Source: Alphaproteobacteria bacterium
Lineage (GTDB): Bacteria; Pseudomonadota; Alphaproteobacteria; ATCC43930; CGMCC-115725
Direction: 5' to 3'
Assembly: GCA_019238055.1 (NCBI GenBank)
Contig: JAFAOB010000218.1
Location: forward strand, 1 to 49,488
Length of the DNA stretch: 49,488 nucleotides
Shown here: positions 11,315 through 44,650 of the stretch, piece by piece
How the letters are laid out: each line of letters begins with the position of its first letter
Numbering within the stretch: the first letter of the stretch is position 1
The notes under the pieces: model-generated
Told to the model about the DNA's origin: nothing
The model's database searches: none
What the model saw: only the letters and a program-made list of their open reading frames with translations
Made by a program: the position numbers and the translations under genes

Positions 11315-11961
11315 CGGTGGCATACCCCGCAGTCCGACAGCGTTTCGGGATGAATGTGATAGGCCGTCATCAACGCCGTACCGGACGGCGTATTGGCGGT
11401 CCGCTTCCAAGACGGGTTGAAGACCTGGTCAAGCGGCCGCAAATGTGGCGCCGGATTGCGGTGGCAATCGAGGCACCAACTCATGTAAAGCGTTGTCGTT
11501 TTACGGGTCAGCGCTTCATCGCCGATCGAGACGTGACACTCGGTGCAGCCGACGCCCTTGGCGATGTGAATGCTGTGATCGAAATAAACGTAATCTGGCA
11601 GCCGATAAACCCAATTCCAGCGCAACGAGATGTTCTCGGCAAAACTCTGCCGCACCGGCTCCAGGACACCGGCATGTGTCCAGATCTGGGAGTGGCAGGT
11701 CATACAGGTCTCGGTTGGCGGCATGCCCGCGTATTGACCGGTTTCGACAGTCATGTGGCAATAACGACAATCGAGGCCGAGCCCGGTAACATGGTGGCGA
11801 TGGCTGAACGGGACCGGCTGTTCGGGCGCGTATCGTTCCTGTGTATTGTATCCCATGACCGGCACGACCCAGATCGAGAGCAACGCTCCCAGGAATAGAA
11901 CCACGACCGAAACGAGCGCCGTATTCATCCACAAATTGGCTCTCGGTCCGAAGATCGCCAC
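11311..11961 (-). CDS. actA: alternative complex III subunit ActA (pentaheme cytochrome c, N-terminal TM anchor)
   Basis: Five CxxCH motifs (CRYCH, CMTCH, CTECH, CLDCH, CGVCH) and an N-terminal TM helix. First gene of the cluster. Confidence 0.9.
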   Translation of the reverse strand: MAIFGPRANLWMNTALVSVVVLFLGALLSIWVVPVMGYNTQERYAPEQPVPFSHRHHVTGLGLDCRYCHMTVETGQYAGMPPTETCMTCHSQIWTHAGVLEPVRQSFAENISLRWNWVYRLPDYVYFDHSIHIAKGVGCTECHVSIGDEALTRKTTTLYMSWCLDCHRNPAPHLRPLDQVFNPSWKRTANTPSGTALMTAYHIHPETLSDCGVCHR

Positions 11962-12043
11962 CGACTACTCCGTTCAGGCGACCCCCGGATCGCGAAGGCT
12001 TCAACGGACTATTTTCGGATTCGGTTCCGCAGAGTTTCCGATT

Positions 12044-13057: not shown

Positions 13058-13090
13058 TCCTACCTCCCAAAAAGCGTGTGACGTGCTTTG

Positions 13091-14965: not shown

Positions 14966-15066
14966 CGCCACCAAGGCTGGTTCGCTGCCCTGGTCTGGGC
15001 TGCGTGTGCCAACGCTTGTCGCTAAAGAATGTTCCGGCACCCTGGTCGCGAGTTCACCCCTCAGCA

Positions 15067-16221: not shown

Positions 16222-16607
16222 TTGAGGCTCCACGCGGCAGCAATAAGACGCGCGGCTTTCTTTCAGCCGCCCCGGCGTGGCCTCCGGAGACTCCTCTCGC
16301 CGTTGCCCTGGCCACGTATCATCAAACGAAGGATTCTGTTGGGTGTTCCGCTGTAGATAAATGGCGCCATGGCGGGTCGCCAAACGCGGCGCAAAGGACG
16401 CGGCACCAGGCATAACCCTGGCGGGTGAGTTCCCCCTTTCGGGAACGGTGGTAGGATCAGGTATGTTCGTTCACGAAACCAAGTGCAGAGGTTGGATATG
16501 TCGCGCTATCCGCCGCTTGACGCGAGAAGGCCAGACCGGCTGCGGGACGATCGAGAGAAAGCCATCTCGCCCGGCCTTTGGCTTGACCAAAGCGCAGTGA
16601 TCTTACG

Positions 16608-17288
16608 ATGACGGCCGATCCTGCCGCCTCGGCGGTCGAGTTTGTGACCGTTCTGGGGAGTACCTCGGCGGCTTGGCCGGATGAGTTATGGGCCGGATCG
16701 GTAGCCTGGGTGGACGCAAGACTCCGCTCATACTATGGCATCTACGAATTCACCGACGACCCCGCCTGCGTTTTGCGGGTAGCGCTTAGCCCAGCACGAA
16801 TGGCGGCCTCGCTATCAGACGGAACAGAGGTCGAGGTCGGCGAACTCGTCGGCATCCTGCATTTTTGGAACGAGCACCTGCCGCGCTATTCGGAGAAAGG
16901 CCCAGATCTCGGGTGGGCCTGTTCAATGCGCGATCGCGTCATCTACTCGCTTCGGGCATTCTCGGCGTACATTGAGCATGATCCCGCTTGGCGTCAGGTC
17001 CGCGCCATTCGGGCCGAGACCGCCTTGCCGGCGCGGCTCGGCGCTCCCCAGATCGCCCGCGTGTTCCAGCGCTATGGCTTTGAGCGGATTCCAACCGAGC
17101 CGTCATTCCTCGCGCGTCTGCATGGGCTCGGCGAATGCTGCATTCTATGGGGTATTACCCGAGCGCTCAACCCGGCCGCAATGCCGCGACAACGTTTTCT
17201 CAGGGATCGCTGTGAATTGTGGATTTCGCGGGCGGCGCTGCTGGCCCGCTATGCCAATCGCGGCAATGCGGGACGCGCCGAGGCCTGA
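16608..17288 (+). CDS. conserved hypothetical protein (possibly YkoP-like) coupled to the downstream glycosyltransferase
   Basis: 226-aa ORF with coding-like composition. Its stop abuts the GT2 start (TGAATG at 17286-17291). The family assignment is only a vague recollection. Confidence 0.55.
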   Translation: MTADPAASAVEFVTVLGSTSAAWPDELWAGSVAWVDARLRSYYGIYEFTDDPACVLRVALSPARMAASLSDGTEVEVGELVGILHFWNEHLPRYSEKGPDLGWACSMRDRVIYSLRAFSAYIEHDPAWRQVRAIRAETALPARLGAPQIARVFQRYGFERIPTEPSFLARLHGLGECCILWGITRALNPAAMPRQRFLRDRCELWISRAALLARYANRGNAGRAEA

Positions 17289-18455
17289 ATGCTCGCTTTG
17301 ATTTGCGGCGCAATATGGGCCAGCCTGGTGATTTATCTGCTTTGCCGCGCACTACGGCAGTTCCGCAATTACCAGCGAGCGACACTCCTAGCCACCTCAA
17401 CAACGAATGATTTACCGAGCGTCTCGACCATCGTCCCGGTCAGGAACGAAATCGCCAATATCGGCCTTTGTTTGAAAGGGCTGACGGAGCAAACTGGTCC
17501 GGCGAGCGGGTCGCATATCATCGTCGTCGATGACGGCTCGCAAGATGGCACCCGGGCAGTTGTGGGACAATATATCAAGATCAATCCCAGGATTTCCCTA
17601 CATGATGCCGGGCCATTGCCGGCTGGATGGACCGGCAAGCCACATGCCTGCTGGCGCGGGGCGTTGCTGGCGGATAGCGACTGGCTGTGCTTCATCGATG
17701 CCGATGTGCGTGCTGCCCCGGAGCTGATTGGCACCGCGGTGACCACTGCCGCCGAGCAGGGGATCGACATGCTTTCGCTGCATCCGCGGCAGGATCTTGG
17801 CAGCTTTTGGGAACGGGTGGTGATACCGGCCGGTCTTTTGGTACTCGCTTGCGCCAAGCGTTTCGAGCCAACCTCACAGGACATCGTAAACGGGCAGTTT
17901 CTTTTGATCCGGCGCGAGGCGTATTTCGCGGTCGGCGGCCATTCCCAGGTGTGTGCCGAGATTTGCGAAGACAAGGCGCTTGCCACTCGGCTCAGATCTC
18001 AAGGCTTGCGGCTGCAAGTGCTCGCCGCCCCGCAGCTCGCCGCAACGCGGATGTACCGCGACCTGCATTCGTTGTGGGAAGGATTTGCTAAAAATTCTGC
18101 CGAGGCTCTGGGGAGTGTCCCCGCCACGCTGACCGCCGCGCTGACCACCTTTGTGTTTGCCTGGACGGCGCTGCTGCTGCCGGTCGCCACCCTATCCGTG
18201 GCATTCGCCGCGCCTTCTCTCGCCGCGGTGACCGGCGCGATTTTGGCCATGATCGGTACCGTCATCGTTGCCGGCGTTCACTTTGGCACGGCGCGCCATT
18301 TTCGTATCCCAGTCGTTTTCGGTTTGACGTTCACGCTGGGCTACACCGCAGTCGCGTGTCTCGCCTGCCATGGCGTCATCACTCAGCTCACGGGGCGGGT
18401 CACGTGGAAGGGACGGACATATCAATTGACCAAGACATCGCCGGGCCGCGCGTAG
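17289..18455 (+). CDS. family 2 glycosyltransferase, membrane-embedded (HpnB/CrtQ-like architecture)
   Basis: N-terminal TM, then VSTIVPVRNE...IIVVDDGSQDGT, GWTGKPHACW and FIDADV (DxD) motifs, with C-terminal TM helices. Confidence 0.85.
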   Translation: MLALICGAIWASLVIYLLCRALRQFRNYQRATLLATSTTNDLPSVSTIVPVRNEIANIGLCLKGLTEQTGPASGSHIIVVDDGSQDGTRAVVGQYIKINPRISLHDAGPLPAGWTGKPHACWRGALLADSDWLCFIDADVRAAPELIGTAVTTAAEQGIDMLSLHPRQDLGSFWERVVIPAGLLVLACAKRFEPTSQDIVNGQFLLIRREAYFAVGGHSQVCAEICEDKALATRLRSQGLRLQVLAAPQLAATRMYRDLHSLWEGFAKNSAEALGSVPATLTAALTTFVFAWTALLLPVATLSVAFAAPSLAAVTGAILAMIGTVIVAGVHFGTARHFRIPVVFGLTFTLGYTAVACLACHGVITQLTGRVTWKGRTYQLTKTSPGRA

Positions 18456-24180: not shown

Positions 24181-24459
24181 ATGCCTGATGTCGGGGGGAT
24201 TGCCGGCGATCGGCTCAAATCCTTTATCGAGCGCATCGAGCGGCTCGAGGAGGAAAAACGGGTGCTCGCCGAGGACATCAAAGAAGTCTACGCCGAAGCC
24301 AAGGGCACCGGCTTCGACACCAAAATCATCCGCCAGATCATCCGGATTCGCAAACGCGACCAGGACGAACTCGACGAAGAGGAAAGCTTGCTCAAGGTCT
24401 ACATGCGCGCGCTCGGCATGCTGCCCGAAGCCGGCCCACAAGCTGCGGCCGCCGAGTAG
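24181..24459 (+). CDS. gapR: GapR-like nucleoid-associated protein (DUF2312)
   Basis: 92 aa. [47 protein letters not shown] matches the DUF2312/GapR consensus. Confidence 0.82.
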
Positions 24460-24487
24460 GAGACGCGCCGGGTTGCGGGACCCGAGA

Positions 24488-25540
24488 CTATCCTGCGGCG
24501 CGAGCGGAGGCGGGGCTTAGATGCCGGCGCAATGCTCCAACGAGGGCGTCGGCTTCGGCCTCGGTCGCGTCAAAGCGGCAGACAAAGCGCGCCAACGTCT
24601 TGCTGCGGCGGTAGAAGCCGAAACCATCGGCTTCGAGCGCATCCATTACATGATTCGGCAGTTCGAGAAAAATCTCGTTGGCCTCGACCGGGGCCAATAA
24701 ACGGGCCGCTGGGAGCTCGGCAAGGCCTGCAGCGATCTGCGCCGCAATGGCATTCGATGCCCGCGCCATTTGCAGCCACAGCCCGTTTTCGACATAGGCC
24801 AGCAATTGGGCCGAGGCGAAACGCATCTTCGACCAGACCTGTCCGGCGCGCCGCAACTGCACTGCCAATCCGTCGACCAATTCGGGCTTGAAGACGACGA
24901 TTGCATCGCACAATAAGCCACCGTTCTTGGTCGCTCCAAAAGACATGATGTCGATGCCACAGCGCCAGGTCGCCTCGGCAGGGCTGCAGCCGAGTCGGGC
25001 CACCGCATTGGCAAATCGTGCCCCGTCCATATGCGCCCTGAGGCCACGGCTTTTTGCGATTTCGGCGATCGCCTGGAGTTCGGCGAGCGAGTAGATCGTG
25101 CCGAGATCGCTCGCCTGGGTCAGATTGATCGCCGCAGGTTGACCGCGATGAATTTGCCCGGGCGCGATTGCCGCTACCGCGTCGCAGAGCGCTGCGGCGC
25201 TGATCCGGCCGTATTCGCCGGCGACCGGGGCGAGCTTGAGACCGCCGCCAAAAAATCCGGCGGCGTTCGCCTCGGACGTGTTGATGTGCGCCGCCTCGCT
25301 GCAATAGATGATGCCCCAGGAAGGGCTCACCGCCGCGAGGCTTAAAGCGTTCGCCGCGGTGCCGGTCGCCACCGGGAAGACCCGCACGGCGGTTTCGAAC
25401 AGGTCGGAGAACCGCCGTTGCAACGACGCCGTCCAGTCATCAGCACCGTAACCGAGCGCCGTATCGCGGTTGGCGCGGATCAGCGCTTCAAGGATTTCCG
25501 GCGCTGCCCGGCCGGTATTGTCGCTGCGATAATCGATCAT
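24488..25540 (-). CDS. ltaE: low-specificity L-threonine aldolase (beta-eliminating lyase family, PLP)
   Basis: MIDYRSDNTGRAAPEILEALIRAN...GTAANALSLA...SFGATKNG (PLP-Lys region). Confidence 0.83.
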   Translation of the reverse strand: MIDYRSDNTGRAAPEILEALIRANRDTALGYGADDWTASLQRRFSDLFETAVRVFPVATGTAANALSLAAVSPSWGIIYCSEAAHINTSEANAAGFFGGGLKLAPVAGEYGRISAAALCDAVAAIAPGQIHRGQPAAINLTQASDLGTIYSLAELQAIAEIAKSRGLRAHMDGARFANAVARLGCSPAEATWRCGIDIMSFGATKNGGLLCDAIVVFKPELVDGLAVQLRRAGQVWSKMRFASAQLLAYVENGLWLQMARASNAIAAQIAAGLAELPAARLLAPVEANEIFLELPNHVMDALEADGFGFYRRSKTLARFVCRFDATEAEADALVGALRRHLSPASARAAG

Positions 25541-27189
25541 CGTCGGAGCATCCTCTTATGCATCTCGAAAATAACCCCGGCATGATCGGCGCGGGCGACG
25601 CGGAGGACAATCGTGTGGCGCAATCGGGTGTTTTCGGCGGAAGAGAGCCCGCGCAAATGTACAAAGTGTAGCCGGGCTGTTTCTTGGAAGTGACGCGAGC
25701 GGATCTCGGCGGCACGAACGATGCCGTCCCAAGAGACCGTCTTGCCCGGCTTGATGGGAGCCGGCGCAGCCGGCGGATGCTCGCGTATAATCGCAGCCCC
25801 GGCCACGCGAACCGGTGCAAGCGATGGCGGGCCGATGTCAGGCGCGCCCATGATCGCCGGGGCGTCAAGCAGACGCTCGCCGGGGATCGTCAGCAGCGCA
25901 GCGGCGATCGGCTCGCCGGAAACAAAAACCGGCCGGGGAACCGCACTCGCAAAAGCGCGATTGGCGAAATGCGCGTTGCTGATCTCGGCCGGAGGCTCAC
26001 CATCCGCCGCGATGCGAATCACATTCAGATCCGCGACATTGCCGCGGTTGATGGCTCGGATGTAATCGAGGTCGTGGGTATAGCTGGGCCAATAGACCTC
26101 GCCCGGCGCCAGCGAAAACCAGGCAATTGCCGGGCCGGGTCCATCGGCATAGCTGAGACCAACGCCGCGAGTTCCGAGAAAGGCGACGACTGCTGGCGCC
26201 CAGACCGGATGCACCATCAATTTGCCGGGCGACCACGACCACTGACCATCAGCTTGGATCCAGCGGCCGTAATGCGTCGTCGCAAAACCCCAAGGTTCGT
26301 TGTCGACCCAGCTCCACCCCCAGGACGAAAGCCATCGCCAATGTCCATTGCGATAAGGTGCCCAACCGGCGGGCAACGCCTTCGGCACCCACACTTCACC
26401 GTATTTGTCGCTCGCCTGCCAGTCACCGGCATCATCAAGCGCCGCATAGCCGGTGATCTCGCGCGACATGAAATAAGGTGCCGCCAACCGCGCATCGTCA
26501 ACGGCGCGTCCTTTGCACCATTTGACGAAGTCGTCATCGGAAGCCGACTCGATCTGCGCCGCCATCGCTCCGGCGGGGTTCAGCAGCAGCCGGTAGCCGG
26601 ATGCAACCGGCAGATCGGCGCCGTTGGCTGCAAACCGAGCGTTCCCGGCGAACGCCGCAATGCGCAGCGGATGATCGCCGCCGCCGATATCGATGTCGTA
26701 GCGGCCGCGTTCCAGCGGCCATACCCTGCCATGCGGCATGTCAATCTCAACAGTCTCACCGGACTCGAACCCGCGAATATCGAGCTCGATCCGGCCCTCT
26801 TTGACCGCGATTTCGGTGATCAGCGGATCGAGCTTGACGATCGCGATTTCGCTGCCCCCGGCGAGGTCGATCGCGTCGGGGCCGATACGGATCTCGCCGC
26901 GGGTCTGCGGATCCGTGTGCAGCGACATTCCCGTCGCGACCGGATCGTTGATCACGGCAGCCGACCATTGCGCTTCACCCGGACCGCGAAACTCGAGCTT
27001 TCCCGCAATCAGGCTGATCCGCCCGACCCGTGCCGAAGGCGCCGGGAGAGAGGCGACGGCGAGCGTCGAAGGCTCCGCCCTTTGCGCCGTTACGGCGGAC
27101 ATTTGCAGCGCATTGCTGGCGTGCGGCGATGTCAAGCCGAGCATGACCAGGGCGGCGGCCACGATGCCGCGTTTAAAAGAGAATCGCAT
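25537..27189 (-). CDS. secreted FecR-domain / DUF6600-like protein
   Basis: Signal peptide MRFSFKRGIVAAALVMLGLTSPHASNA, a FecR-like beta region, and the Trp-rich WAPYRNGHWRWLSSWGWSWVDNEPWGFATTHYGRW. It overlaps the ltaE start by 4 nt. Confidence 0.65.
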   Translation of the reverse strand: MRFSFKRGIVAAALVMLGLTSPHASNALQMSAVTAQRAEPSTLAVASLPAPSARVGRISLIAGKLEFRGPGEAQWSAAVINDPVATGMSLHTDPQTRGEIRIGPDAIDLAGGSEIAIVKLDPLITEIAVKEGRIELDIRGFESGETVEIDMPHGRVWPLERGRYDIDIGGGDHPLRIAAFAGNARFAANGADLPVASGYRLLLNPAGAMAAQIESASDDDFVKWCKGRAVDDARLAAPYFMSREITGYAALDDAGDWQASDKYGEVWVPKALPAGWAPYRNGHWRWLSSWGWSWVDNEPWGFATTHYGRWIQADGQWSWSPGKLMVHPVWAPAVVAFLGTRGVGLSYADGPGPAIAWFSLAPGEVYWPSYTHDLDYIRAINRGNVADLNVIRIAADGEPPAEISNAHFANRAFASAVPRPVFVSGEPIAAALLTIPGERLLDAPAIMGAPDIGPPSLAPVRVAGAAIIREHPPAAPAPIKPGKTVSWDGIVRAAEIRSRHFQETARLHFVHLRGLSSAENTRLRHTIVLRVARADHAGVIFEMHKRMLRR

Positions 27190-27356
27190 GGCTTCCCCTA
27201 TGCCGATGCCGACACGCCGAAATCTAACACATCAGGCGCGCTCGCAAGAAATATCGTCCCTTACTGCTCTTCACGCTTTGAGTTATCAAACGATAAAAAT
27301 ACTCGCGATTCAGGATCAAATTTGGATTATCTCGTGATGAGTGCAAACTGCTGATC

Positions 27357-29174
27357 ATGAAACGTGGACTGCCTAACGGTATCGCAATCGTGGTTCTCGG
27401 CCCCTCTGGAGAAGCGCTCGGTCGTCATCTGCAAGCAATATTGCCCGAAGCCGAATTGCACGGTCCCCGCGCCCGATCAGGCGATTGGGACATCGCGTAT
27501 GATCAAGCTGCTGCACACATAGCCAGCCTCTTCGCCTCGAGCCGGCCGATTGTCGGGATCTGCGCCAGCGGCATCCTGATCCGCTCGGTGGCGCCGCTCC
27601 TCGCGGCAAAAGAACACGAGCCGCCGGTCGTCGCCGTTGCCGAAGATGGCTCGGTTGCGGTGCCGTTGGTCGGCGGGCATCACGGCGCAAACGCGATCGC
27701 CCGCGCAGTCGCCGACGCGACAGGCGGAACCGCCGCGATCACCACGGCCGGTGATCTGCGGCTCGGCTTGGCGCTCGACGAACCGCCACCCGGCTGGCGC
27801 ATCGCCAATCCGCAGTGGGTCAAGCAGGTTGCCGCCGCGCTGCTCGCCGGCGAGCCTGTCGCGCTAATCGAGGAGGCCGGCGGCGGCGAATGGCTGCGCC
27901 AGGCGGAGATTGTCTGGGCAGAGGACGCTCCGACCCGGATCGTCGTGACCGACCGAACGCCAGCTTCGGGTGCCACGGCGCTCTTCTATCACCCGCCGGT
28001 ACTGGCGCTTGGCATCGGCTGCGAGCGCGGCTGTCCGGCCGAGGAGATCACCCTCCTTGCACGGATGTGCCTAGCCGAAGCCGGGATCGCCGAAGGCGCT
28101 GTCGCCGCGATCGTCTCGATCGATTTGAAGCTCGGCGAACCTGGAATCCACGCACTGGCCCATGCTCTCGACGTGCCGGCGCGGTTTTTTCCGGCAGCGC
28201 GCCTGCTCAGCGAGACGGAACGTCTTACCGAGCGCTCGGCAGCGGTGTTGCGCGCCACCGGCTGCTGGGGTGTCGCCGAAGGTGCCGCACTCGCGGCCGT
28301 CGGAGCCGACGGAACCCTGGTCGTGCCAAAGCGCAAATCGCAGCATGCAACCTGCGCCATCGCCCGCGCCGCGCAGCCAATCGACGTCACTGCGATCGGG
28401 CGGCGCGGCCGGCTGGCGATCGTCGGCATCGGTCCCGGCGACCCGGCTTGGCGCACCCCGGAGGCGAGTTCGGCCCTCGCCTCGTCGCAGGACGTAGTGG
28501 GATATCGCCTCTATCTCGATCTGCTCGGATCGGCAATCGCCGGCAAACGGCGACACGAAACGGCACTTGGTGAGGAAGAAGCACGGGTGCGCCGGGCGCT
28601 CGATCTCGCCGCCGAGGGCCGCGACGTCGCCCTTGTGTCATCGGGCGATGCCGGCATTTACGGTCTGGCGGCGCTGGTTTTCGAATTGCTCGACCGCGCC
28701 GCACGCCCGGAATGGCAGTCTGTCGAAATCGCCGTGTGCCCCGGTGTTTCGGCATTGCAGGCCGCAGCGGCGCGGGCGGGAGCGCCGCTCGGCCACGATT
28801 TCTGCGCGATCTCGCTGTCCGACCTGTTGACCCCGTGGGCCACGATCCGGGCGCGACTCGAGCTTGCGGCGGCAGCCGATTTCGTCGTGGCACTTTTCAA
28901 TCCATGCTCGGCGCGACGGTCCGAGCGGTTTGCCGAAGCAGTACAAATCCTGGAGCGCCACCGTTTGCCGGAAATACCTGTCTTTATTGGGCGTAATCTC
29001 GGGCGCCCCGGAGAGGAAACCCGCATCATCCCGCTTCGCGACCTCGCCGCTGCTGCTGCCGGGATCGACATGCTGACCATAGTATTGGTCGGAAATAGCA
29101 CGACGCGGATCGGTGGCGGCAATCCGCCCCGGCTTTACACGCCGCGCGGTTATTGTGTCGACGCAGCCCGGTGA
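27357..29174 (+). CDS. cobJ: bifunctional CbiG-like (cobalt-precorrin-5A hydrolase / CobE) + precorrin-3B C17-methyltransferase (CobJ/CbiH)
   Basis: The N-terminal half carries CbiG_N/C-like motifs ([25 protein letters not shown]; [10 protein letters not shown]). The C-terminal half is a tetrapyrrole methylase ([22 protein letters not shown]). Confidence 0.85.
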
Positions 29175-29938
29175 CCGTGCATTTTATCGGTGCCGGACCC
29201 GGCGCCGCCGATTTGATCACCGTGCGCGGCTTGCGGCTCATCGAGCGCTGCCCAGTCTGCCTTTATGCCGGTTCATTGGTGCCTTCAGAAATTCTCGCCG
29301 CGGCGCCACCCGGTGCCCGCATCATCGACACCGCACCCTTAACCCTCGACGAGATTATCGCGCACATCGCGGCGGCGCATGAGCAGAACCTTGACGTCGC
29401 CCGGCTGCATTCCGGTGACCCATCGCTTTATGGGGCGATTGCCGAGCAAATGCGTCGCCTCGACGCACTCGGCATTCCCTATGATGTGACTCCGGGCGTA
29501 CCGGCCTTCGCCGCCACTGCCGCGGCGATCGGCTGCGAGCTGACCCTGACGGAAATCGTGCAGACCGTGATCCTGACGCGCACCGCTACACGTTCGTCAC
29601 CAATGCCGAAGCGCGAAGCGCTCGAGCGGCTGGCGGTGAGTGGCGCCACCTTGGCAATCCACCTCTCGGTGACCAATCTGGCCCGGATCGTTCGCGCGCT
29701 GACGCCTTATTACGGCGCCGATTGCCCGGCGGTCGTTGCCTATCGCGTCAGCTGGCCCGACCAGAAACTGATCCGCGGCACCCTCGGCGACATCCGCGAG
29801 CGGGTGAAAGCGGCGCACCTCACTCGTACCGCGCTGGTTCTGGTTGGCGCGGCGCTTGGCGGCGCTTACACCACGGCCAGCGAAAGCCGGCTCTACGCCG
29901 CCGACCACCATCACCTGCTGCGCCCGCGCCGCGCTTGA
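29171..29938 (+). CDS. cobM: precorrin-4 C11-methyltransferase
   Basis: [37 protein letters not shown]. The GTG start overlaps the upstream stop as GTGA (29171-29174). Confidence 0.88.
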
Positions 29939-30020
29939 GCGCCGCTTTTCGCCGCACTTGCCGAGGCCCGTCTCCACGCTCAATTTGCGATCCAGTGTGA
30001 TTTGTTTGGAGCCGGCCCGC

Positions 30021-31226
30021 GTGTCTCTATCGACAACGGCTCAGCCATCGACTGCACTAGACAAGCTGGCGGAAGACAAGCTGGCGGACGAAACTCCGCG
30101 AAGAGCGGTCGCCGCGTGGCTTTTTGGATGCTGTGGGCTGATCTTTTTGATGATCGTCGTCGGCGGGGTTACGCGGCTCACTTTGTCGGGGCTGTCGATC
30201 ACCGAGTGGCACCCGATTATCGGTATCATCCCGCCGCTAACCGAGGCGCAGTGGGCGGACGCATTCGCCCATTATCAGCAAGTTCCGGAATATCGTGCGC
30301 TCCACTACGGGATGAGCCTAGCCGATTTCAAAACGATCTTCTTCTGGGAATACACGCATCGCTTACTTGGCCGCCTGATCGGTGTTGCGTTTGCCGTGCC
30401 ACTGGTGTGGTTCTGGCTGCGCGGGGCACTGCCGCGCCGGTTGGCGCCGGCGCTGCTCGGCATTCTGGCGCTCGGCTTCGCCCAGGGTCTGCTCGGCTGG
30501 TACATGGTTGAAAGCGGGCTCGCCGACCGGATCGAGGTCAGCCAATACCGCCTCGTGGCCCATCTGGCACTGGCGCTGGCGATCTATAGTTTAATCCTGT
30601 GGACCGCATTGGGGCTGTCATATCCCTTTTCACCCGCCAGAGGGGAGAGGGAACGGCTCGACCCCCACCCTCCCCTCCCCCGCCAGCGGGGGAGGGTCAG
30701 GGAGGGGGGCTGCCCGCGGGGTTTAGTCGGACAAGGGGCGGGCTGGCGGCGCACAGCCGAGGCGCTGGTCGGCTTTGTCGGGTTAACGATCGCTGCCGGC
30801 GGATTTGTCGCCGGCACCCGCGCCGGCCTCATTTACAACACCTTCCCGCTGATGGATGGGCATTTGATCCCGGCTGGATATGCCCAGCTGCATCCTTTCA
30901 TGCGCAACTGGTTCGAGAACATCCCGGCGATCCAGTTCGATCACCGCCTGCTGGCTGAGACCACCTTTCTTTTTATACTGGTGCTGTGGGCGGTTGGCCT
31001 GCGTCACCCCCTCCCCCACCCTGCCCGCGCCGCCCTCTGGGCACTGTTCGGCGCCGCCCTCGTGCAGGTGACGCTCGGCATCTCGACCTTGCTTTTGGTT
31101 GTGCCAATCCCGCTCGCCGCGGCCCACCAAGCCGGCGCGGTTCTGCTGCTGACCACCGCGATCGCCTTTCGCCATACTTTGCGCCCGGCGGCACTGATAG
31201 ACGCGAAAGGGGCCGCGCCCATATAG
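30021..31226 (+). CDS. ctaA: COX15/CtaA family heme A synthase
   Basis: [22 protein letters not shown]..., [20 protein letters not shown] and HRLLAETT motifs. Start tentatively placed at GTG 30021 (alternative GTG at 29997). The track ORF start (29844) overlaps cobM. Confidence 0.85.
30661..30709. repeat. G/C-rich imperfect inverted repeat (REP-like hairpin) lying in frame inside ctaA
   Basis: ACCCCCACCCTCCCCTCCCCCGC-CA-GCGGGGGAGGGTCAGGGAGGGGGG. The 11 bp next to the loop pair perfectly, then pairing resumes after a small bulge. Confidence 0.6.
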
Positions 31227-31251
31227 TTCCCGTAATGCGCGGGAGGAAATC

Positions 31252-33423
31252 ATGGCCGAGGATGGCGCCTTTGCGAAAAAGACCATCGATGACTGGACGG
31301 CACTGGCGCAGAAGGAGCTAAGGGGCAAGCCGCTCGACAGCCTCGACTGGACCACGCCCGAGGGCATCCGCGTCAAGCCGCTCTACACCGCCGCCGATCT
31401 CGCAGCGATCGAGGCGGCCGGCTTTCCGCTTGGTTCGATGCCCGGTTTCCCGCCTTATCCGCGCGGACCGCGAGCCACGATGTACGCCAACCGGCCGTGG
31501 ACGATCCGGCAATATTCAGGCTTTTCGACCGCCAAGGAGTCGAACCGTTTTTATCGCGAAAATTTGAAGGCGGGGCAGATGGGTCTGTCGATCGCTTTCG
31601 ATCTCGCGACCCATCGCGGCTACGACAGCGACCATCCGCGCGTCATCGGCGATGTCGGCAAGGCCGGGGTGGCGATCGACAGCGTCGAGGACATGAAGAT
31701 TTTGTTCGACGGCATCCCGCTCGACCGGATGAGCGTGTCGATGACCATGAACGGCGCGGTTTTGCCCGTGCTTGCCGGCTATATCGTCGCCGCCGAAGAA
31801 CAGGGCGTGCCCCAAGACAAGCTGCAAGGCACGATCCAGAACGACATTTTAAAAGAGTTCATGGTCCGCAACACCTACATCTACCCGCCCGGGCCATCGA
31901 TGCGGATCGTCGCTGACATTATCGAATACACGGCGCGCCATATGCTGCGCTTCAATTCGATTTCGATCTCCGGCTATCACATGGAGGAAGCCGGTGCCAC
32001 CTCGGTTCAGGAGCTGGGCTTCACCTTGGCCGACGGGCTCGAATACGTCCGCGCGGCCTTGTCGCGCGGGCTAAAGATTGACGAATTCGCGCCACGGCTG
32101 TCATTCTTTTTCGGGATCGGCATGAATTTCTTTATGGAGATCGCGAAACTGCGCGCCGCGCGGATATTGTGGGCGCGGCTGATGCAGCAATTCGGGCCAG
32201 GGGACCCGGTGAGTCTCGCGTTGCGCACCCATTGCCAGACTTCGGGGGTCAGCCTGACCGAGCAGGACCCGCACAACAACATCATCCGCACGACAATCGA
32301 GGCCTTGGCCGCGGTGCTCGGCGGCACCCAGTCTTTGCACACGAATTCGTATGATGAGGCGATGGCGCTGCCGACTCCGGCCTCGATGCGCATTGCCCGC
32401 AATACCCAGCTGATCCTCGCCGAAGAGACCGGCATCCCTCATGTCGTCGATCCGTTGGGCGGCAGCTATTATGTGGAAAATCTGACCCACTCGCTGTGCG
32501 AGGCGGCGAGTGCCTTGATCAAAGAGGTCGAGGCGCTGGGCGGCATGACCAAGGCGGTCGAGGCTGGCATGCCAAAATTACGCATCGAGGAGGCCGCGGC
32601 ACGGCGTCAGGCGGCGATCGACCGTAGCGAAGAGACGATCGTCGGCGTCAATAAATACCAATCGGGCGAGGCGACCGCGATTGAACTGCTCGATGTCGAC
32701 AATTCGGCGGTCCGCAACGCGCAGGTGGCCCGGCTCGCCCAACTCCGCCGCAACCGGGATCCCGAGCGCTGCCGGCGGGCGCTGGCGGCGCTGACCAAAG
32801 CGGCGCAAAGCGGCCGCGGCAACCTCTTGGAATTGTCGATCGAGGCGACGCGGGCGCGCGCCACGGTCGGCGAAATCTCCGATGCGCTGGAACAGGTGTT
32901 CACCCGGCATCGCGCTCAGATCCGTGCTGTTTCCGGCGTCTATGGCGGCCGCTACGATGGTGACGAAGGGTTTCGCCGCATTCAGCGTGAGATCGACGCC
33001 TTTGCCCATGACGAGGGTCGGCGGCCGCGCATGCTGGTCGTCAAGCTCGGCCAGGATGGCCATGACCGCGGCGCCAAGGTCATCGTCACCGCCTTTGCCG
33101 ATATCGGCTTTGATGTCGATATCGGTCCGTTGTTCCAGACGCCGGAAGAAGCGGCGCGCGAGGCCGTCGAAAACGATGTCCATGTCATTGGCGTATCGAG
33201 CCAGGCGGCCGGCCACAAGACACTGGTCCCGGCGCTGATCGAGGCGCTTAAGCACGAGGGGGCCGACGACATCCTGGTCGTCTGCGGCGGCGTAATCCCC
33301 GCCAAGGACTATGATTTTCTGAAGAAGGCCGGTGTCAGCGCGATCTTTGGCCCCGGCACCAACATCCCCGCCGCCGCCGCCGAAATCCTGTCGCTGATCC
33401 GGACCCACCGCCTAGCGGTGTGA
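31252..33423 (+). CDS. scpA: methylmalonyl-CoA mutase, large (alpha) subunit with C-terminal B12-binding domain
   Basis: 723 aa. N-terminus has [14 protein letters not shown] and [18 protein letters not shown]. The B12 domain has [16 protein letters not shown]. Confidence 0.95.
33379..33423 (+). repeat. direct repeat copy 1 (authentic 3' end of the mutase gene)
   Basis: GCCGAAATCCTGTCGCTGATCCGGACCCACCGCCTAGCGGTGTGA. Compare 34150-34195. Confidence 0.75.
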
Positions 33424-33435
33424 TGCTGTCTCGGG

Positions 33436-33675
33436 TCACTTTGCCGCCGCGATGTGCAATTCGGCCTCGACGGGCACCTCGAAGATTTCTCCGCGCAACA
33501 GCCGGGTGGAGAAGAATAGCACCTCCAGATTTTCGATCTCTCCAGTTTTCGGGTTAAGGCGCGCGATGACGTCATCGCCCAGTTCTTCCGACTCTTGTTC
33601 GCGATATGGCGGACATTTGTCAATGTGAAGGATGTCGGCATCGCGATCATATTTGAAGCTCAATTTCGCGCCCAT
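33436..33675 (-). CDS. DUF2283 domain-containing protein (antitoxin-like partner)
   Basis: 79 aa from the internal Met MGAKLSFKYDRDADILHIDKCPPY..ARLNPKTGEIENLEVLFFS, with SD GGGAGAGG before the ATG at 33675. The longer track ORF (to 33798) has an Arg/Gly-rich N-terminal extension that does not look like coding sequence. Confidence 0.7.
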   Translation of the reverse strand: MGAKLSFKYDRDADILHIDKCPPYREQESEELGDDVIARLNPKTGEIENLEVLFFSTRLLRGEIFEVPVEAELHIAAAK

Positions 33676-33722
33676 TCCACCTCTCCCGCCCCCAGTTTCC
33701 GTGCAATATACGCGGTAATAAT

Positions 33723-34043
33723 CTAATAAAGGCTTTTGTCGCTGAGACCCACCACTACTACGACCACGTGCTTGCCCTCTTTCAGATCGGAATGCCATCG
33801 TGAAAACAGCCTGGCTGCAGCAAAGCGCCTGCTGCGCCGTATCTCATCAGGCGCGGCAAGGGTAGTGGCAATCCGATCCCGATGTTCCGGCAACAGGTCA
33901 GGATGACGCTCGGCAATGTGACGCTCGCGCTCGCGGCTGAGTTCGACCCCCCGACCGAGATAGGGACAGGCAAATGCAGTCTCGATAACGACCTTCTTTT
34001 CTATGCGATCCAGGTGACAGAGGACCGCCTCAAAGAATGCCTC
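33723..34043 (-). pseudogene. start-less ORF resembling a small toxin-like partner gene upstream of DUF2283
   Basis: My own translation gives a 106-codon open frame: ..SRERERHIAERHPDLLPEHRDRIATTLAAPDEIRRSRRFAAARLFSRWHSDLKEGKHVVVVVVGLSDKSLY*. It has no in-frame ATG/GTG/TTG. The nearest ATG (34047-34045) is one base out of frame and stops after 5 codons. Not in the ORF track. Confidence 0.4.
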
Positions 34044-34149
34044 TCATACGCTTGTTATGGCGGAGATCCTGATCGTAAGAGCGCGATCAGCTAAAGTTAA
34101 AAGTCGGGTTCAGCGCAACCCACAACCCCAGGACCAAGCTGCCGCTCTC

Positions 34150-34195
34150 GCCGAAATCCTCTCGCTGATTCAAACCCATCGCCTCGCCGCGTTGA
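34150..34195 (+). repeat. direct repeat copy 2 (orphan remnant of a mutase 3' end)
   Basis: GCCGAAATCCTCTCGCTGATTCAAACCCATCGCCTCGCCGCGTTGA reads ..AEILSLIQTHRLAA.., against ..[14 protein letters not shown] at the real gene end. Confidence 0.75.
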
Positions 34196-34472
34196 GAGAG
34201 CCGAGGCTACGATATATGTCGACAAAAAACAGCAGACCGTGTGGAAACACTGTTTGCGGTGGCGCGCACCATATCCACCCTAATTTATCCGACGGCGCGG
34301 GCGAACTCAGGTTGAGCCCTGCTCACGATGTCAGCAATCAGCGGCACAAGCAGAATAATAACCATAATTGTCGGAGCGCCGCATTGACGGTGCAGGCAGT
34401 CATTCATAAGTTTCGGCGCGAAAGCCGGCTCACCTAAGGGTCGTGTTTTTTTTGAGAGCGAGGATTGGCGCA

Positions 34473-35630
34473 ATGAAGCCGACGCGGCGTCCGCATAACC
34501 CGTGTTTCTCATCCGGGCCATGCGCCAAGCGCCCGGGCTGGTCGCCCGCGGCACTGGAAGCGGCCCTGGTCGGGCGCTCGCATCGCTCCGGTGTCGGCAA
34601 GACGCGCATCGTCGAGGTCGTCGATCGCTCGCGGGCGATTCTCGGTATCCCGGCCGACTGGCAGGTCGGCATTGTCGCCGGCTCCGACACCGGTGCAATC
34701 GAGATCGCGATGTGGTCGCTGCTCGGCGCCCGCGGCATTGACATGCTCGCCTGGGAGAATTTTGGCGAAGGCTGGGTCGAGGACGTAAAGCAACTGAACT
34801 TGCCGGATGTCCGGGTGTTGCATGCGCCCTATGGCCGGCTGCCGAATTTGCGTGAGGTCGACCCGGCACGCGACGTCGTCTTCCCGTGGAACGGCACAAC
34901 GGCGGGGGTGCGCATCCCAAATGGCGACTGGATCGCCGCTGATCGCAAGGGCCTCGCCATCTGCGACGCCACCTCGGCCGTATTTGCGATGCGGCTCCCC
35001 TGGGACAAGCTCGATGTCGTCACCTGGTCATGGCAAAAGGCGCTCGGCGGCGAGGCGGCGCACGGCATGCTGGCATTGTCGCCACGGGCTGTCGAGCGCC
35101 TCGAAAGCTATACCCCGCCTTGGCCGCTGCCCAAGCTCTTCCGGCTGACCTCAAAGGGCAAATTGATCAAGGGCGTATTCCAAGGCGAGACGATCAACAC
35201 TCCGTCGATGCTGTGCGTTGAAGACGCGCTTGACTCGCTGTTATGGGCCGAGTCGGTCGGCGGGCTCGACGGGTTGACCGCCCGTTCGGAGAAGAACCTC
35301 GCGATCGTCGCCGCGTGGACTGCGCAAACGCCGTGGATCGAGTTCCTCGCTGAAGACCCGGCGACGATCTCATGCACCTCGCCGCAGCTGAAGATCATCG
35401 AGCCGTGGTTTACGGCATTATCGCCTGATGAGCGGTTTCAAACCGTTCGTACGATGACAGCCCGGCTCGAAAAAGAGGGAGCGGCGTATGACATCGCCAG
35501 CCACCGAGCCTCGCCGCCCGGGATCCGAATCTGGACCGGTGCCACGGTCGAAGCCAGCGATGTCGAGGCGTTGATGCCATGGCTCGATTGGGCCTGGGAC
35601 GAGCAATGTCGGCTCGCAAAGGCGGCCTGA
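34473..35630 (+). CDS. serC: phosphoserine aminotransferase (alphaproteobacterial long form)
   Basis: [23 protein letters not shown]... and genomic linkage with serA. Confidence 0.9.
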
Positions 35631-41599: not shown

Positions 41600-41781
41600 C
41601 TGCGTCCTCATCCTGAACCTGCAGTGCGGATTACCGATTATCGATCGGGTGCCGCCGCCGTACAAGCGAACTGCCGTCAATCGCAGCGCGGTGGGCGCCA
41701 AGACAGACCGAGACGAGCCCTTCAAAAAGCTCTCTTCAGCCGAGCAATTTACGTTAAAAGAGTCCTGAAGGAGAAGTCCTG

Positions 41782-41901
41782 GTGAATAATTCGTTGATTT
41801 TTTGCATCTTGCAACCGAGCCGTGGAGCGCGCGAAACTAGATCGCCTCGGCAGCGGATGAATGGATTGAGGGATGGGACGCCAACCAGTCTCGTTACGTA
41901 A
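41782..41901 (+). CDS. candidate 39-aa leader/precursor ORF overlapping the nucleotidyltransferase start
   Basis: My own read: strong SD AAGGAGA (41768-41774), 7 nt before a GTG at 41782. It encodes MNNSLIFCILQPSRGARETRSPRQRMNGLRDGTPTSLVT* and overlaps the ATG at 41873 by 29 nt. Not in the ORF track because it is under 60 aa. Confidence 0.25.
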   Translation: MNNSLIFCILQPSRGARETRSPRQRMNGLRDGTPTSLVT

Positions 41902-43144
41902 ATACGGGATCGACCCCTCCCCAGAATTCTTGCTGGTCCTTTATTGCGCCCGAACTGCTCCAGACTCCGAGATCCAGGCCAGCCTAGCCGGGTTGGCGAA
42001 GCAAATCACCGACTGGGATTACGTGTTCCATTTCGCGGAAGAGCAAGGAGTTTTATTATTTCTATTACATAATCTTTATCGGACTGTTTGCGCGCCGTTG
42101 CCGCAGACTTTGCTAACCAGTGTCAGACGACGTTATGCTTCACGAAGCCAATCACTGCTGGTTCAACTTCGCGAGGTTACTTCACTCCTTGCTGTGCATG
42201 GCATAAGGGCGATCTCCTATAAAGGGCCGACATTGGCGACAATTGTTTACCCGCACTGCAACTTGCGTGTCTCAAGCGACTTGGATCTTTTAGTGCACGC
42301 GAGTGATTACCGGAATGCTTCAAAGGTCCTTTTAGACCAGGGCTATTTAGCAGCCGAGGATTGTGGCTATAAGTGCCACTTATGGCATCCTATCAAGCGG
42401 ACCGACGTCGATCTTCATAGAGCCCTGGCTCCGAGATGGTATCAATTCAGATTCAATTTCGATCGCGCATGGGAACGAGCAGTTCGGCTCACAATACCCA
42501 ATGGAGGTGTGACCGTTACATTTGGCTTAGAGGATTTACTGATCGTGCTGTGCGTCGATCTCGTTAAAGATATCGCACAACCATGGAATTTTCGGCTCGT
42601 GAAATTAACCGATATTGCTGAACTCATCGACAATATCGAGCACATTAACGTGTCTGCGCTGATCGACCGCGCGAAGTCCATTGGTCTCAGTCGGATAACG
42701 CTTTTTGGGCTCCTCCTTACAGATCGCATACATTCGGTAAGCCTGCCTGCTGTAATCCAAGAACAGATTCAGCTGTATTCTCCTCGTTTGCACAAACTTG
42801 TCGACCTAACGATGCGTCTGATGCTTGATGAGAAATCATCAAAGCGACAACCAACGCCAAAATTTCCACATGAAGTAAGGACAATCCTTAATTTACAGGA
42901 TAACCTCTGGCAGAAATTGTGTGTTATTGCCCTTTATATGGTCAGGCCAGTGATGCTTATTAGTAAATACGGGTTCGCAAGGGTCACAAAGTTCTTTCAG
43001 GCATTCTGGTGGATCAAAGAACGGGCACGGCTCTGCGAAGCGGGCCGATTTGCAAAACCGATCAGACGCAAACCTGAAGCGCGGTCGTCGGCAGAAGTTA
43101 AACTTAATACCGATATAGGGCTCCGGTCAAAAAATACGTCTTGA
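41873..43144 (+). CDS. nucleotidyltransferase family protein (NTP_transf_5 / PF14907-like)
   Basis: 423 aa. PEFLLVLYCART.., ..YKGPTLA..., NLRVSSDLDLLVHASDYRNASKVLLDQGY matches the DxD nucleotidyltransferase signature of this family. An in-frame TGA at 41867-41869 fixes the 5' limit. Confidence 0.75.
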   Translation: MGRQPVSLRKYGIDPSPEFLLVLYCARTAPDSEIQASLAGLAKQITDWDYVFHFAEEQGVLLFLLHNLYRTVCAPLPQTLLTSVRRRYASRSQSLLVQLREVTSLLAVHGIRAISYKGPTLATIVYPHCNLRVSSDLDLLVHASDYRNASKVLLDQGYLAAEDCGYKCHLWHPIKRTDVDLHRALAPRWYQFRFNFDRAWERAVRLTIPNGGVTVTFGLEDLLIVLCVDLVKDIAQPWNFRLVKLTDIAELIDNIEHINVSALIDRAKSIGLSRITLFGLLLTDRIHSVSLPAVIQEQIQLYSPRLHKLVDLTMRLMLDEKSSKRQPTPKFPHEVRTILNLQDNLWQKLCVIALYMVRPVMLISKYGFARVTKFFQAFWWIKERARLCEAGRFAKPIRRKPEARSSAEVKLNTDIGLRSKNTS

Positions 43145-43248
43145 AAAGTTGAAAAATCCCGTCAATATCATCTTCGCTGAGATGTACGGGGGCATTTTTC
43201 TTGAACGCCGGAGAACTTTACAACAAAGTTAATACGGGTCGGAGAGAG

Positions 43249-44163
43249 ATGCCGGACGTGATTGGACTGCAGAGCCCAACAATGGCGGCCTTTGTCCTAG
43301 CATTTGAATGTTACGGCGCCCGCGTCGGCGTCAGTACCAATGAAGCCAGCATCTTTGATCTTCTGCCGAAGTATCTGCCAGTCAAATCTGACCTGATCAG
43401 CCTCTCAGCCGTCGAGAACAAGTTTACACTCTTGAAGGGTGACCCGGCCAGCAGCTCGGGCCGAGATGGCGCGTACTGTCTTTATGACAGTGAATGTTTG
43501 GTGTTAAGTACATCGGATCTCCATGTCGCTTTGGAACAACTGGCGAGCGAACTGGATGCGGTGGTCGCACTCGAAGCATCACCCTCGCTCTTTGTCCATG
43601 CCGGTGTTGTAGGCTGGCGCGGTGGTGCCATCGTCATTCCTGGGCGCAGTATGACCGGGAAGACCTCGCTGGTCATGGAATTAGTAAGGACTGGGGCGAC
43701 CTATTACTCGGACGAATACGCGGTATTCGATAGGCAAGGTCAGATACACCCGTTTCCGAGGCCGATGCATCTTCGCACGGGTGAGCTGGGAAGATGGCAG
43801 AAAATCACCGCCGAGAGTCTCGGCAGTCATGTTGGGACCGGTGCCCTTCCGGTGGCTTTGGTTGTCGCTACTCAGTACGACCCGCGGGCGCGTTGGAGCC
43901 CAAAGCTCCTCGAGCCGGGGCAGACCGTACTTCGACTCTTCGACAATACAGTTGACGCCTTGCGACGCCCAGAGGACGCGATCGATATTTTCGCCAGAGT
44001 GGCAGCCGGTTGCGTTGCGATTACCGGCGCACGGCCTTCATCAGAGCAAGTCGCGCCGTTCCTATTAGCACTTTGTGCCCAAACAACTCAAAGTAGGGCT
44101 TTCGCGGAACCTTCGGAATGCTATTCCGATTTTAATCTCGACCCCCTCCCCACTAACCCCTAA
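43249..44163 (+). CDS. HPr kinase/phosphorylase-related P-loop kinase (HprK-related kinase type)
   Basis: VHAGVVGWRGGAIVIPGRSMTGKTSLVMELVRTGATYYSDEYAVFD parallels the HprK Walker-A region (G.SG.GKS...L...G..L..DD). ATG 43249 lies behind GGAGAGAG. The track start is a TTG at 43201. Confidence 0.75.
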   Translation: MPDVIGLQSPTMAAFVLAFECYGARVGVSTNEASIFDLLPKYLPVKSDLISLSAVENKFTLLKGDPASSSGRDGAYCLYDSECLVLSTSDLHVALEQLASELDAVVALEASPSLFVHAGVVGWRGGAIVIPGRSMTGKTSLVMELVRTGATYYSDEYAVFDRQGQIHPFPRPMHLRTGELGRWQKITAESLGSHVGTGALPVALVVATQYDPRARWSPKLLEPGQTVLRLFDNTVDALRRPEDAIDIFARVAAGCVAITGARPSSEQVAPFLLALCAQTTQSRAFAEPSECYSDFNLDPLPTNP

Positions 44164-44179
44164 CGACGGAAAGGCAGAG

Positions 44180-44650
44180 ATGCCATACAAACCAGAAGTG
44201 CGGCGAGACGAATTGACGATAAGGGAAGTCCAAGACGAGTTGGTTGTGTACGATGGCCGTGAAAAACGCGCCCATCGTCTCAATAAGACGGCCGCGCCAA
44301 TCTTGCAGGCCAGCGATGGCTCGCGAACCGTCGATCAGATCGCAGCTTTGTTGTCCGATGATATGGATATTAAGGATAGAACAGAGTTGGTCTGGTTGAC
44401 ACTACAGGATCTGTCTAAGGTGGGTCTTTTAACCGCCGCGATCCCGTCGGGACATGTGGATCGATCGCGCCGCAATCTACTACAAAGGGCAGCAGTTATC
44501 GGCCTCACTCTGCCAGTTGTTGAGTCGATCGTTGCCCAGTCTGCAACAGCCCATGCCTCGGATCCGAGGCGATATGAGCATCGGGAACATCATTCTCATC
44601 GAGATTTCGATCATCATCGAGATTTCAATCGAGACAGGGATCGGGATTAA
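44180..44650 (+). CDS. PqqD/RRE-family peptide-binding domain fused to a Tat-signal-like segment and a His/Asp/Arg-rich repeat tail
   Basis: 156 aa from MPYKPEV. Residues 8-90 are PqqD-like (LVVYDGREKRAHRLNKTAAPILQASDGSRTVDQIAALL...LQDLSKVGLL). Residues 96-126 are SRRNLLQRAAVIGLTLPVVESIVAQSATAHA. Residues 127-156 are SDPRRYEHREHHSHRDFDHHRDFNRDRDRD. Confidence 0.75.
   Translation: MPYKPEVRRDELTIREVQDELVVYDGREKRAHRLNKTAAPILQASDGSRTVDQIAALLSDDMDIKDRTELVWLTLQDLSKVGLLTAAIPSGHVDRSRRNLLQRAAVIGLTLPVVESIVAQSATAHASDPRRYEHREHHSHRDFDHHRDFNRDRDRD
44597..44632 (+). repeat. tandem 18-nt coding repeat in the tail of the PqqD-fusion gene
   Basis: CATCGAGATTTCGATCAT / CATCGAGATTTCAATCGA encode HRDFDH / HRDFNR. 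Confidence 0.8.

Follow-up and report, generated by a model that had tools for sequence, protein, structure and literature searches.

Small toxin–antitoxin-type modules at a probable insertion point in the 3' end of the methylmalonyl-CoA mutase gene in a clade of uncultured alphaproteobacteria

Tandem accretion of elements at the 3' ends of housekeeping genes has been described for the ICESt1/CIME arrays (CIME, cis-mobilizable element) at fda; IMEs (integrative and mobilizable elements) are known at guaA, trmE, rpsI, and rpmG (PMC5704250). In these arrays, a direct repeat of the 3' end of the target gene, usually of 8–60 bp, brackets the foreign DNA, and the terminus supplied by the element keeps the gene intact. 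Some members are decayed and lack integration genes, tandem elements are split by internal copies that resemble attachment (att) sites, and toxin–antitoxin (TA) genes are found among the cargo (PMC5704250). Similarly, the island arrays at ssrA in Dehalococcoides, which make up the high-plasticity zone of the genome, consist of tandem islands downstream of one essential gene, each bounded by a short repeat of the gene's 3' end, and some islands without an integration module were proposed to be CIMEs or fixed relics (PMC3146451). We found a comparable arrangement downstream of the methylmalonyl-CoA mutase gene in a 49,488-nt stretch of DNA, hereafter referred to as the window (contig JAFAOB010000218.1 of assembly GCA_019238055.1), from an alphaproteobacterium.

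The mutase gene of the window is intact, and a second copy of its end lies downstream, beyond a small two-gene cassette (cassette A). Comparison with related loci indicates that foreign DNA was inserted inside the last ~100 nt of the mutase gene and probably supplied the terminus now in use, the old terminus being displaced downstream, where it is decaying. We favor, with a probability of about 0.55, tandem accretion of integrase-less, CIME-like elements at the gene 3' end by site-specific recombination, followed by decay. The principle of islets at gene 3' ends is already well known, and what sets this one apart is the target gene and the unusually small size of the cassettes; overall, the locus is a clear but fairly ordinary example of small foreign modules piling up at one gene end. 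Methylmalonyl-CoA mutase is not among the targets listed in the review of CIME and IME arrays (PMC5704250), and the mutase locus also differs from these arrays in that the cassettes span only 0.7–1.5 kb, no integrase-bearing partner was found in any lineage, and there is no sign of current mobility. Its outer repeat, of 29 nt with 25 exact, falls within the usual size range, whereas the internal copy has diverged and, at ~97 nt, is of unusual length. The Dehalococcoides arrays have an RNA gene as target, a uniform 20-bp repeat, and a serine-recombinase module (DsiB) in most islands (PMC3146451), whereas repeat lengths at the mutase locus are unequal and no recombinase was seen. The mutase gene and the two copies of its end are as follows.

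31252–33423, plus strand: methylmalonyl-CoA mutase gene, intact, 723 amino acids (aa); NCBIfam NF006944 equivalog (1238 bits), with the Pfam domains MM_CoA_mutase and B12-binding.
33325–33423, plus strand: copy 1, the working 3' terminus of the mutase gene; aligns to 34100–34192 and is duplicated downstream.
34100–34197, plus strand: copy 2, the displaced and decaying mutase terminus, an internal islet relic; reads ..QAAALAEILSLIQTHRLAA.

A repeat search returned a direct repeat of 52 nt at 33370–33421 and 34141–34192, with 41 of 52 positions identical (79%) and a start-to-start spacing of 771 nt. The original prediction for this DNA, made by a model from the letters alone, had reported a repeat of the mutase end 771 nt downstream, and formal alignment confirmed that it is significant. 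The last 63 nt of the mutase gene aligned to the next 2 kb with a score of 24.5, compared with a mean of 9.2 (standard deviation [sd] 1.1, maximum 14.5) for 300 shuffles and a best score of 13.5 elsewhere in the window. The identity given in the prediction, about 35 of 41 positions, came out slightly lower, at 34 matches over the 42 positions that it compared. The weaker similarity noted upstream of the repeat is likewise real: when gaps were allowed, the repeat extended to ~97 nt (33325–33421 against 34100–34192; 93 aligned positions, 67 of them matching, and a single gap of 4 nt) and scored 35, against 8.8 ± 1.3 (maximum 14) for 500 shuffles. At this length, copy 2 corresponds to approximately the last 33 mutase codons.

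A 4-nt deletion shifts the frame of copy 2, TTGA replaces the TGA stop of the gene, and the copy is a dead gene end. It is ~91% identical (~9% different) between the window and its relative L081, and its position holds different sequence in two other relatives, L173 and L164, so that copy 2 is not conserved. An assembly artefact was rejected because the arrangement was reproduced in four independent assemblies, which were 99.8–99.9% identical to the window across the repeat and cassette; two of these (L165 and L166) also cross the junction to the downstream gene serC. The mutase of the window ends in ..RLAV* (asterisks denote stop codons), and the 32 close relatives inspected all end in ..AA* (mostly ..RLAA*); the last residue of the window protein reflects a lineage-specific GCG-to-GTG change at 33418–33420. 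A 126-aa open reading frame (ORF) on the plus strand (34057–34437; MAEILIVRARS..AEILSLIQTHRLAALRE..) runs through copy 2 and the serC junction; it lacks any family match, the DNA under it comes from three different sources, and it is therefore almost certainly not a gene. In annotation, 34100–34197 and similar stretches would best be marked as gene-end remnants rather than as ORFs, and ORF 34057–34437 as spurious.

Related mutase loci, designated by L-numbers, were taken from genomes and metagenomes. The genome collection contained no close relative (best match, 89%), and the close relatives came from the protein database. No exact entry for the window mutase protein was on record; its closest relatives were 96–85% identical, and those with names were Stellaceae. 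Cassette A is present in five related lineages, 12 nt past the mutase stop; in those whose contigs extend far enough, another remnant of the mutase end borders native downstream DNA (29 nt in L081 and L173, ~85 nt in L164 and L171). In L081, a contig from the Joint Genome Institute (JGI), the mutase is 96% identical at the aa level, and a single alignment covers window positions 24301–34232 at 90% nt identity. Downstream of the L081 mutase come cassette A, copy 2 plus 35 nt, a second cassette (a DUF4238 gene and a BrnT-remnant/helix-turn-helix [HTH] gene), the mutase end for a third time, and a PEMT-family gene. This third copy spans 29 nt, of which 28 match the L081 gene end, including 25 without a break.

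In L092, which is more distant and has the same upstream ctaA–mutase order, the PEMT gene starts 29 nt after the mutase stop. The L092 gene end, stop context (GCTTGAGCAA), and intergenic DNA are colinear with L081 from the third copy onward, and the colinearity starts exactly at CTGATCC, 29 nt before the stop. The L092 site is thus unoccupied, and L081 carries an insert of ~2.3 kb placed 29 nt before the original stop. L173 has cassette A, a different internal pseudo-terminus, a gene for a 329-aa HTH protein, and the same 29-nt outer copy (28 of 29–30 positions) next to PEMT, beyond which lie GST, acetyltransferase, and lipase genes; its second module carries a complete in-frame mimic of the mutase terminus (SLIRKRQLAA*). 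In L164 and L171, cassette A is followed immediately by an in-frame remnant of the mutase end (..GTNIPVATEILSLLRTHRLAA*, one codon missing, ~85 nt) and then by a convergent 2'-5' RNA ligase gene, which in L084 and L085 directly follows the mutase gene, giving a second kind of unoccupied site. The idea that a duplicated terminus marks foreign DNA in the mutase 3' end, with a replacement terminus supplied by the insert, is thus borne out by L081 against L092 and by L164 and L171 against L084 and L085. Empty sites of the forms mutase–PEMT (L092) and mutase–RNA ligase (L084 and L085) were recovered in this way in more distant relatives, but not the mutase–serC form that had been expected.

The incoming DNA probably supplied the terminus now in use because the modules sit within the last 29 to ~100 nt of the gene, the working terminus lies on the gene side, the displaced termini lie on the far side, and empty sites exist. 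In L081 and L173, the element-supplied part probably covers at least the final 29 nt; it would probably be ~97 nt if cassette A entered separately. We considered copy 2 and the L164 and L173 remnants as simple orthologues of each other and rejected this for their 3' parts and the DNA downstream, which are unrelated.

Cassette A is modified further in two relatives. An IS1595-family transposase gene (74–1030) adjoins the DUF2283 gene in L169 and replaces most of the toxin gene of the cassette, and a T5orf172-domain gene follows a truncated cassette A in L174. A terminus pattern of the RTH type is seen two times in L081, L164, L171, and L173, and one time in contigs of the window type. A hairpin of 12–13 bp (GCAACCCGCCGTC ... 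GACACGG[T/C]GGGTTGC) lies just left of the outer 29-nt copy in L081 (~11398–11437) and in the same place in L173. The 10-mer AGCGCAACCC at the foot of this hairpin also opens the diverged part of copy 2 in the window and L081, which may be chance or may reflect a shared recombination arm.

A downstream duplicate of the locus' own gene end was found in L081 only among the 163 mutase loci checked, and the feature is therefore confined to a narrow clade rather than a general property of the mutase gene. L082, L083, and L013, with ~90% aa identical mutases, share the upstream order, have unrelated DNA downstream, and show no duplicate within 6–10 kb. After the mutase stop, L013 has phage-tail-sheath/contractile-injection-like genes (8486–12117), L083 has genes for a histidine kinase, Npun_R2479, DUF5681, and a reverse transcriptase (12199–18405), and L082 has DUF2726 and cupin genes (12315–13367).

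Cassette A, which lies between the two copies of the mutase end, comprises the following features.

33424–33435: spacer of 12 nt between the mutase stop and the convergent DUF2283 stop, forming the left edge of cassette A; the geometry is the same in L081, L164, and L173.
33436–33675, minus strand: DUF2283 (YuzE-like) antitoxin-like gene, intact, 79 aa, Pfam PF10049.
33660–34043, minus strand: toxin-like ORF (translation; BECR-fold RNase-like), whose overlap with the DUF2283 start is 16 nt, counting the stop codon.
34044–34099: right end of cassette A (..CAGCTAAAG..), located upstream of the toxin ORF and common to the window, L081, and L173.

The original prediction had placed a DUF2283 gene preceded by a toxin-like ORF on the opposite strand. 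The DUF2283 assignment stands above the Pfam cut-off (PF10049, E = 6.9e-8, 33 bits against a cut-off of 23); the toxin-like ORF exists, but its family matches stay below cut-offs. Even the intact L173 version reached only 20.7 bits (E = 5e-4) against the cut-off of 27.1 for PBECR2, and E = 0.04 for DUF4258, again below the Pfam cut-off. PBECR2 and DUF4258 are families with the fold called BECR (Barnase-EndoU-ColicinE5/D-RelE), and the ORF may accordingly be read as a BECR-like RNase toxin. The toxin ORF had no match in PADLOC or NCBIfam, and none of the cassette genes was assigned to a known defence system by PADLOC. As in type II TA modules with a BECR toxin (DUF4258, PBECR, or RelE-like) and a DUF2283 (YuzE) partner, the cassette has a toxin-first two-gene operon with overlapping frames, the C-terminal motif ..WIITAY.., the N-terminal motif ERHxxERHP, and weak PBECR2 and DUF4258 matches. 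It differs from them in that the putative toxin matches remain below the Pfam cut-offs, the mutase-linked copies lack a canonical start, and the window copy is a pseudogene.

The window translation reads ..CPYLGRGVELSRERERHIAERHPDLLPEHRDRI..GKHVVVVVVGLSDKSLY*IITAYIARKL..EWARN*, with an in-frame TAG at 33723–33725, directly ahead of the conserved WIITAY motif; in the five related lineages this codon is TGG and the frame is open to its end. No mutase-linked copy has ATG, GTG, or TTG at the start position used by related copies elsewhere, which begin with TTG (L179) or GTG (L172). A type II TA module has both genes intact, and in the window the toxin frame carries this TAG and lacks a canonical start. 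The toxin gene of the window is thus broken, beside a retained orphan antitoxin gene. The DUF2283 protein is 94–100% identical across the five related lineages, the window copy being 100% identical to that of L164. The ratio of nonsynonymous to synonymous divergence (dN/dS) was 0–0.14 for DUF2283 and 0.1–0.3 for the toxin ORF, with dS of 0.16–0.4 between most lineages. Because these values indicate purifying selection on both frames, the toxin/DUF2283 module must be old and maintained, with the toxin lost only in the window lineage. The insert had also been described as AT-richer than its surroundings: the 31 G+C counted at 33481–33540 is exact, but the contrast is mild (55.0% for the cassette against 60.9% for the whole window, with an sd of 4.4% among windows of the same size).

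A related toxin/DUF2283 cassette fills the intergenic space between pmbA and msbA in L172 (4700–5240), L178, L179, and L180, which are other Stellaceae. It begins 4–20 nt after the pmbA stop, its DUF2283 shows ~90% aa and 75% nt identity, and its toxin starts with TTG or GTG.

To the right of copy 2, the window continues as follows.

34198–34232: post-copy-2 stretch of 35 nt common to the window and L081; it leads into the second cassette in L081, and blastn homology to L081 ends at 34232.
34233–34279: filler of 47 nt at the rearrangement junction; matches neither L081 nor the serC loci L175 and L176.
34280–34472, plus strand: native serC upstream region, 92.7–93.4% identical to L175 and L176, with a hairpin and T8 at 34426–34451.
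34473–35630, plus strand: serC (phosphoserine transaminase), NCBIfam NF002841, 638 bits.

Homology between the serC loci of relatives and the window (~93%) extends from 34280 to about 41700–41750. In relatives that share 97% identity in SerC, serC is not preceded by the mutase gene; upstream of it lies a divergent UDG-family gene and then Zincin_1, Pterin_4a, and PagL genes, all of which the window lacks. Because L081 homology ends at 34232 and serC-locus homology starts at 34280, the window joins two regions with a breakpoint at 34232–34280, and the adjacency of serC results from a later rearrangement in this lineage only. The window lineage has lost its second cassette, outer pseudo-terminus, and native downstream genes, or these were moved. 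Two expectations from the window alone therefore fell away. No empty site with the mutase gene followed directly by the serC leader was found among the relatives, and copy 2, which had been taken for the outer boundary of the insert, is an internal relic, left within a composite islet whose outer copy was lost.

The serC upstream region gave no Rfam match at gathering or permissive thresholds, tRNA and tmRNA scans found nothing, and its fold z-score of −0.14 was no better than that of shuffles. The hairpin with T8 at 34426–34451 (plus strand), 22 nt before the serC start, is kept in L175 and resembles a terminator. As the gene preceding serC in relatives is oriented in the opposite direction, this structure may act as a leader or attenuator. 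L175 also has two transposase genes of insertion sequence (IS) type 2.5–5 kb upstream of serC.

In the ancestor of a narrow Stellaceae-like alphaproteobacterial clade, foreign DNA with a TA-like two-gene module (a BECR-like toxin, then DUF2283) entered the mutase end, probably with a mutase terminus of its own, so that the enzyme stayed intact. Under site-specific accretion, cassette A would have entered near −97 from the stop codon (TCAGCGC), and B-type elements would then have entered the displaced copy at −29 (CTGATCC), which would yield a nested series of gene end, cassette A, internal pseudo-terminus, cassette B, outer 29-nt pseudo-terminus, and native neighbour. Further modules lie behind the first in some lineages (DUF4238 plus the BrnT-remnant/HTH gene, or the 329-aa HTH protein); modules may later have been swapped by ordinary recombination between shared parts, and deletions may have followed, for example, between two GCGCGAT repeats in L164. 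In the window lineage, a rearrangement cut the series 35 nt past the internal pseudo-terminus and joined it via the 47-nt filler to the serC upstream region, leaving the gene end, cassette A, and the internal relic; the nonsense mutation in the toxin gene came afterwards and left the antitoxin gene an orphan. The enzymes behind the insertions would be recombinases that acted in trans or were encoded by since-lost parts of the elements. Fixed crossover points are supported by the right end of cassette A, which is the same in the window, L081, and L173 despite the different pseudo-termini that follow, and by the L173 and L164 remnants, whose similarity ends at CTGAT, the start of the outer 29-nt copy, and which are unrelated beyond; such a switch is expected if a second element recombined there within the displaced copy. 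The short and nearly exact outer repeat and the in-frame mimic inserted into a dead copy in L173 also speak for site-specific recombination. Repeat length, the 3' end of a housekeeping gene as target, the TA cargo, and tandem arrays with decayed, integrase-less members agree with the arrays described for IMEs and CIMEs (PMC5704250) and for ssrA in Dehalococcoides (PMC3146451).

Several results weigh against this interpretation. The two copies in the window are only 79% identical, two different crossover positions are required, and the first ~45 nt of copy 2 in the window and L081 (57–68% identical to known mutase alleles) are left unexplained by the reconstruction. The L164 junction falls on a GCGCGAT microhomology, and blastn end points place right-side truncations of cassette A at ~34037 in L174, ~34015 in L164, and 33734 in L169. 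As the original prediction stated, there is no integrase. Pfam scans of the ORFs in the window detected housekeeping families only, with no integrase, transposase, or excisionase, and no integrase was found in the Pfam annotations of the L081, L164, L169, L171, L173, and L174 islets or by a crude tblastn search with XerC. No integrase-bearing element at the same att site was found among the matches listed (180 loci, often on short contigs; viral contigs; plasmids). For mutase-end mimics on elements, a protein-based scan of viral contigs gave no relative, two DNA patterns run against viral contigs gave no match and one chance match in a Gly/Ala-rich phage tail gene, and in the plasmid collection only a Paracoccus mutase gene end matched. 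A related cassette does occur elsewhere, between pmbA and msbA, but it has no flanking duplication, and the notion that the TA cassette itself makes gene-end duplications wherever it lands was rejected on that ground. Between lineages, cassette A has diverged to the same degree as the core genes on its flanks (0.88–0.95 identity per 300 nt); it looks vertically inherited rather than mobile, and nothing points to recent mobility. Both of its genes are under purifying selection as well, and cassette A did not arrive recently. Repeats and empty sites are present, and because an integrase is lacking, the locus would not be filed as an integrative element proper and is at most a CIME-like relic; recombination genes are absent and bounding repeats, as putative att sites, are present, with the outer repeat missing and the inner one decayed in the window.

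Integration by a site-specific recombinase, plausible as it is, has a live and main competitor in homology-facilitated illegitimate recombination, in which an incoming fragment from a relative, with a mutase gene followed by a foreign module, would pair with the resident mutase on one side and be joined through microhomology on the other. Reportedly, this is an established mechanism, described by de Vries and Wackernagel in 2002. Homology-facilitated illegitimate recombination is also mentioned in PMC6382021. A joint within the last 30–100 nt of the resident gene would duplicate the terminus, and repeated events with deletions would leave nested remnants. This course would need no recombinase, in keeping with the lack of an integrase anywhere, and it would accommodate the unequal remnant lengths (~97, ~85, and 29 nt), the several truncation points of cassette A, the L164 junction on GCGCGAT(C/A) common to cassette and mutase, the 47-nt filler, which is typical of illegitimate joining, and the break of synteny at the mutase stop in every relative. 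We nevertheless regard it as the less likely of the two: independent joints are not expected to give an identical right end of cassette A before different pseudo-termini or remnants whose similarity stops at CTGAT, where the outer copy starts, nor a repeat with a 25-nt exact match, and an element-borne att site accounts more readily than a chance joint for a complete in-frame mimic in a dead copy.

We think it unlikely, though worth stating beside the favored site-specific accretion, that the cassettes form a family of minimal integrase-less modules with mutase-end mimics, inserted repeatedly at two fixed points of the gene end or its dead copies by a recombinase encoded elsewhere in the genome, as an integron-like array without a linked integrase; were this so, the C-terminus of a B12 enzyme would be a swappable, element-borne part. 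A transposon or integron-type cassette, with the repeat as target-site duplication or attC-like site, is very improbable. A small insert with a TA module is found in many integron cassettes, and the L169 islet does hold an IS1595 transposase, but that IS is a secondary insertion truncating the toxin gene, the coding-end repeats of 29–97 nt are far longer than target-site duplications, the cassette ends lack terminal inverted repeats, and the window has no transposase or IntI. Least probable of all is a conserved function for copy 2, for example as a leader or regulatory site of serC or of the cassette, with no more than a resemblance to a gene end. It lies ~280 nt upstream of serC, and a weak minus-strand terminator-like hairpin overlaps it at 34105–34122; it is, however, outside the native serC upstream region, which starts at 34280 in relatives, and it has a frame-breaking deletion, differs from L081 by ~9%, is replaced in L173 and L164, and gave no Rfam match or structural signal. 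The conserved regulatory element that had been named as the alternative to a gene remnant is contradicted by the decay of copy 2 and by the other sequences that take its place in relatives.

Taken with the empty sites and nested relics that document it, the mutase 3' end serves as an insertion point for small TA and defence-type modules in a clade of uncultured soil alphaproteobacteria, which probably acquired the last codons of the enzyme with inserted DNA. The locus also shows that purifying selection can maintain a very small cassette long after any mobility genes have disappeared, and that an islet's outer boundary can be concealed by a later rearrangement, in which case one genome alone may mislead about a duplicated copy.

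Elsewhere in the window, the lowest G+C content was found at 41873–44650 (45–47%, with the minimum at ~42250–42800). The ORFs there encode an NTP_transf_5 protein (41873–43144), a protein with no Pfam match (43201–44163), and a PqqD-like protein (44075–44650), and they may form a small peptide-modification cluster of foreign origin, of the type that makes ribosomally synthesized and post-translationally modified peptides (RiPPs).

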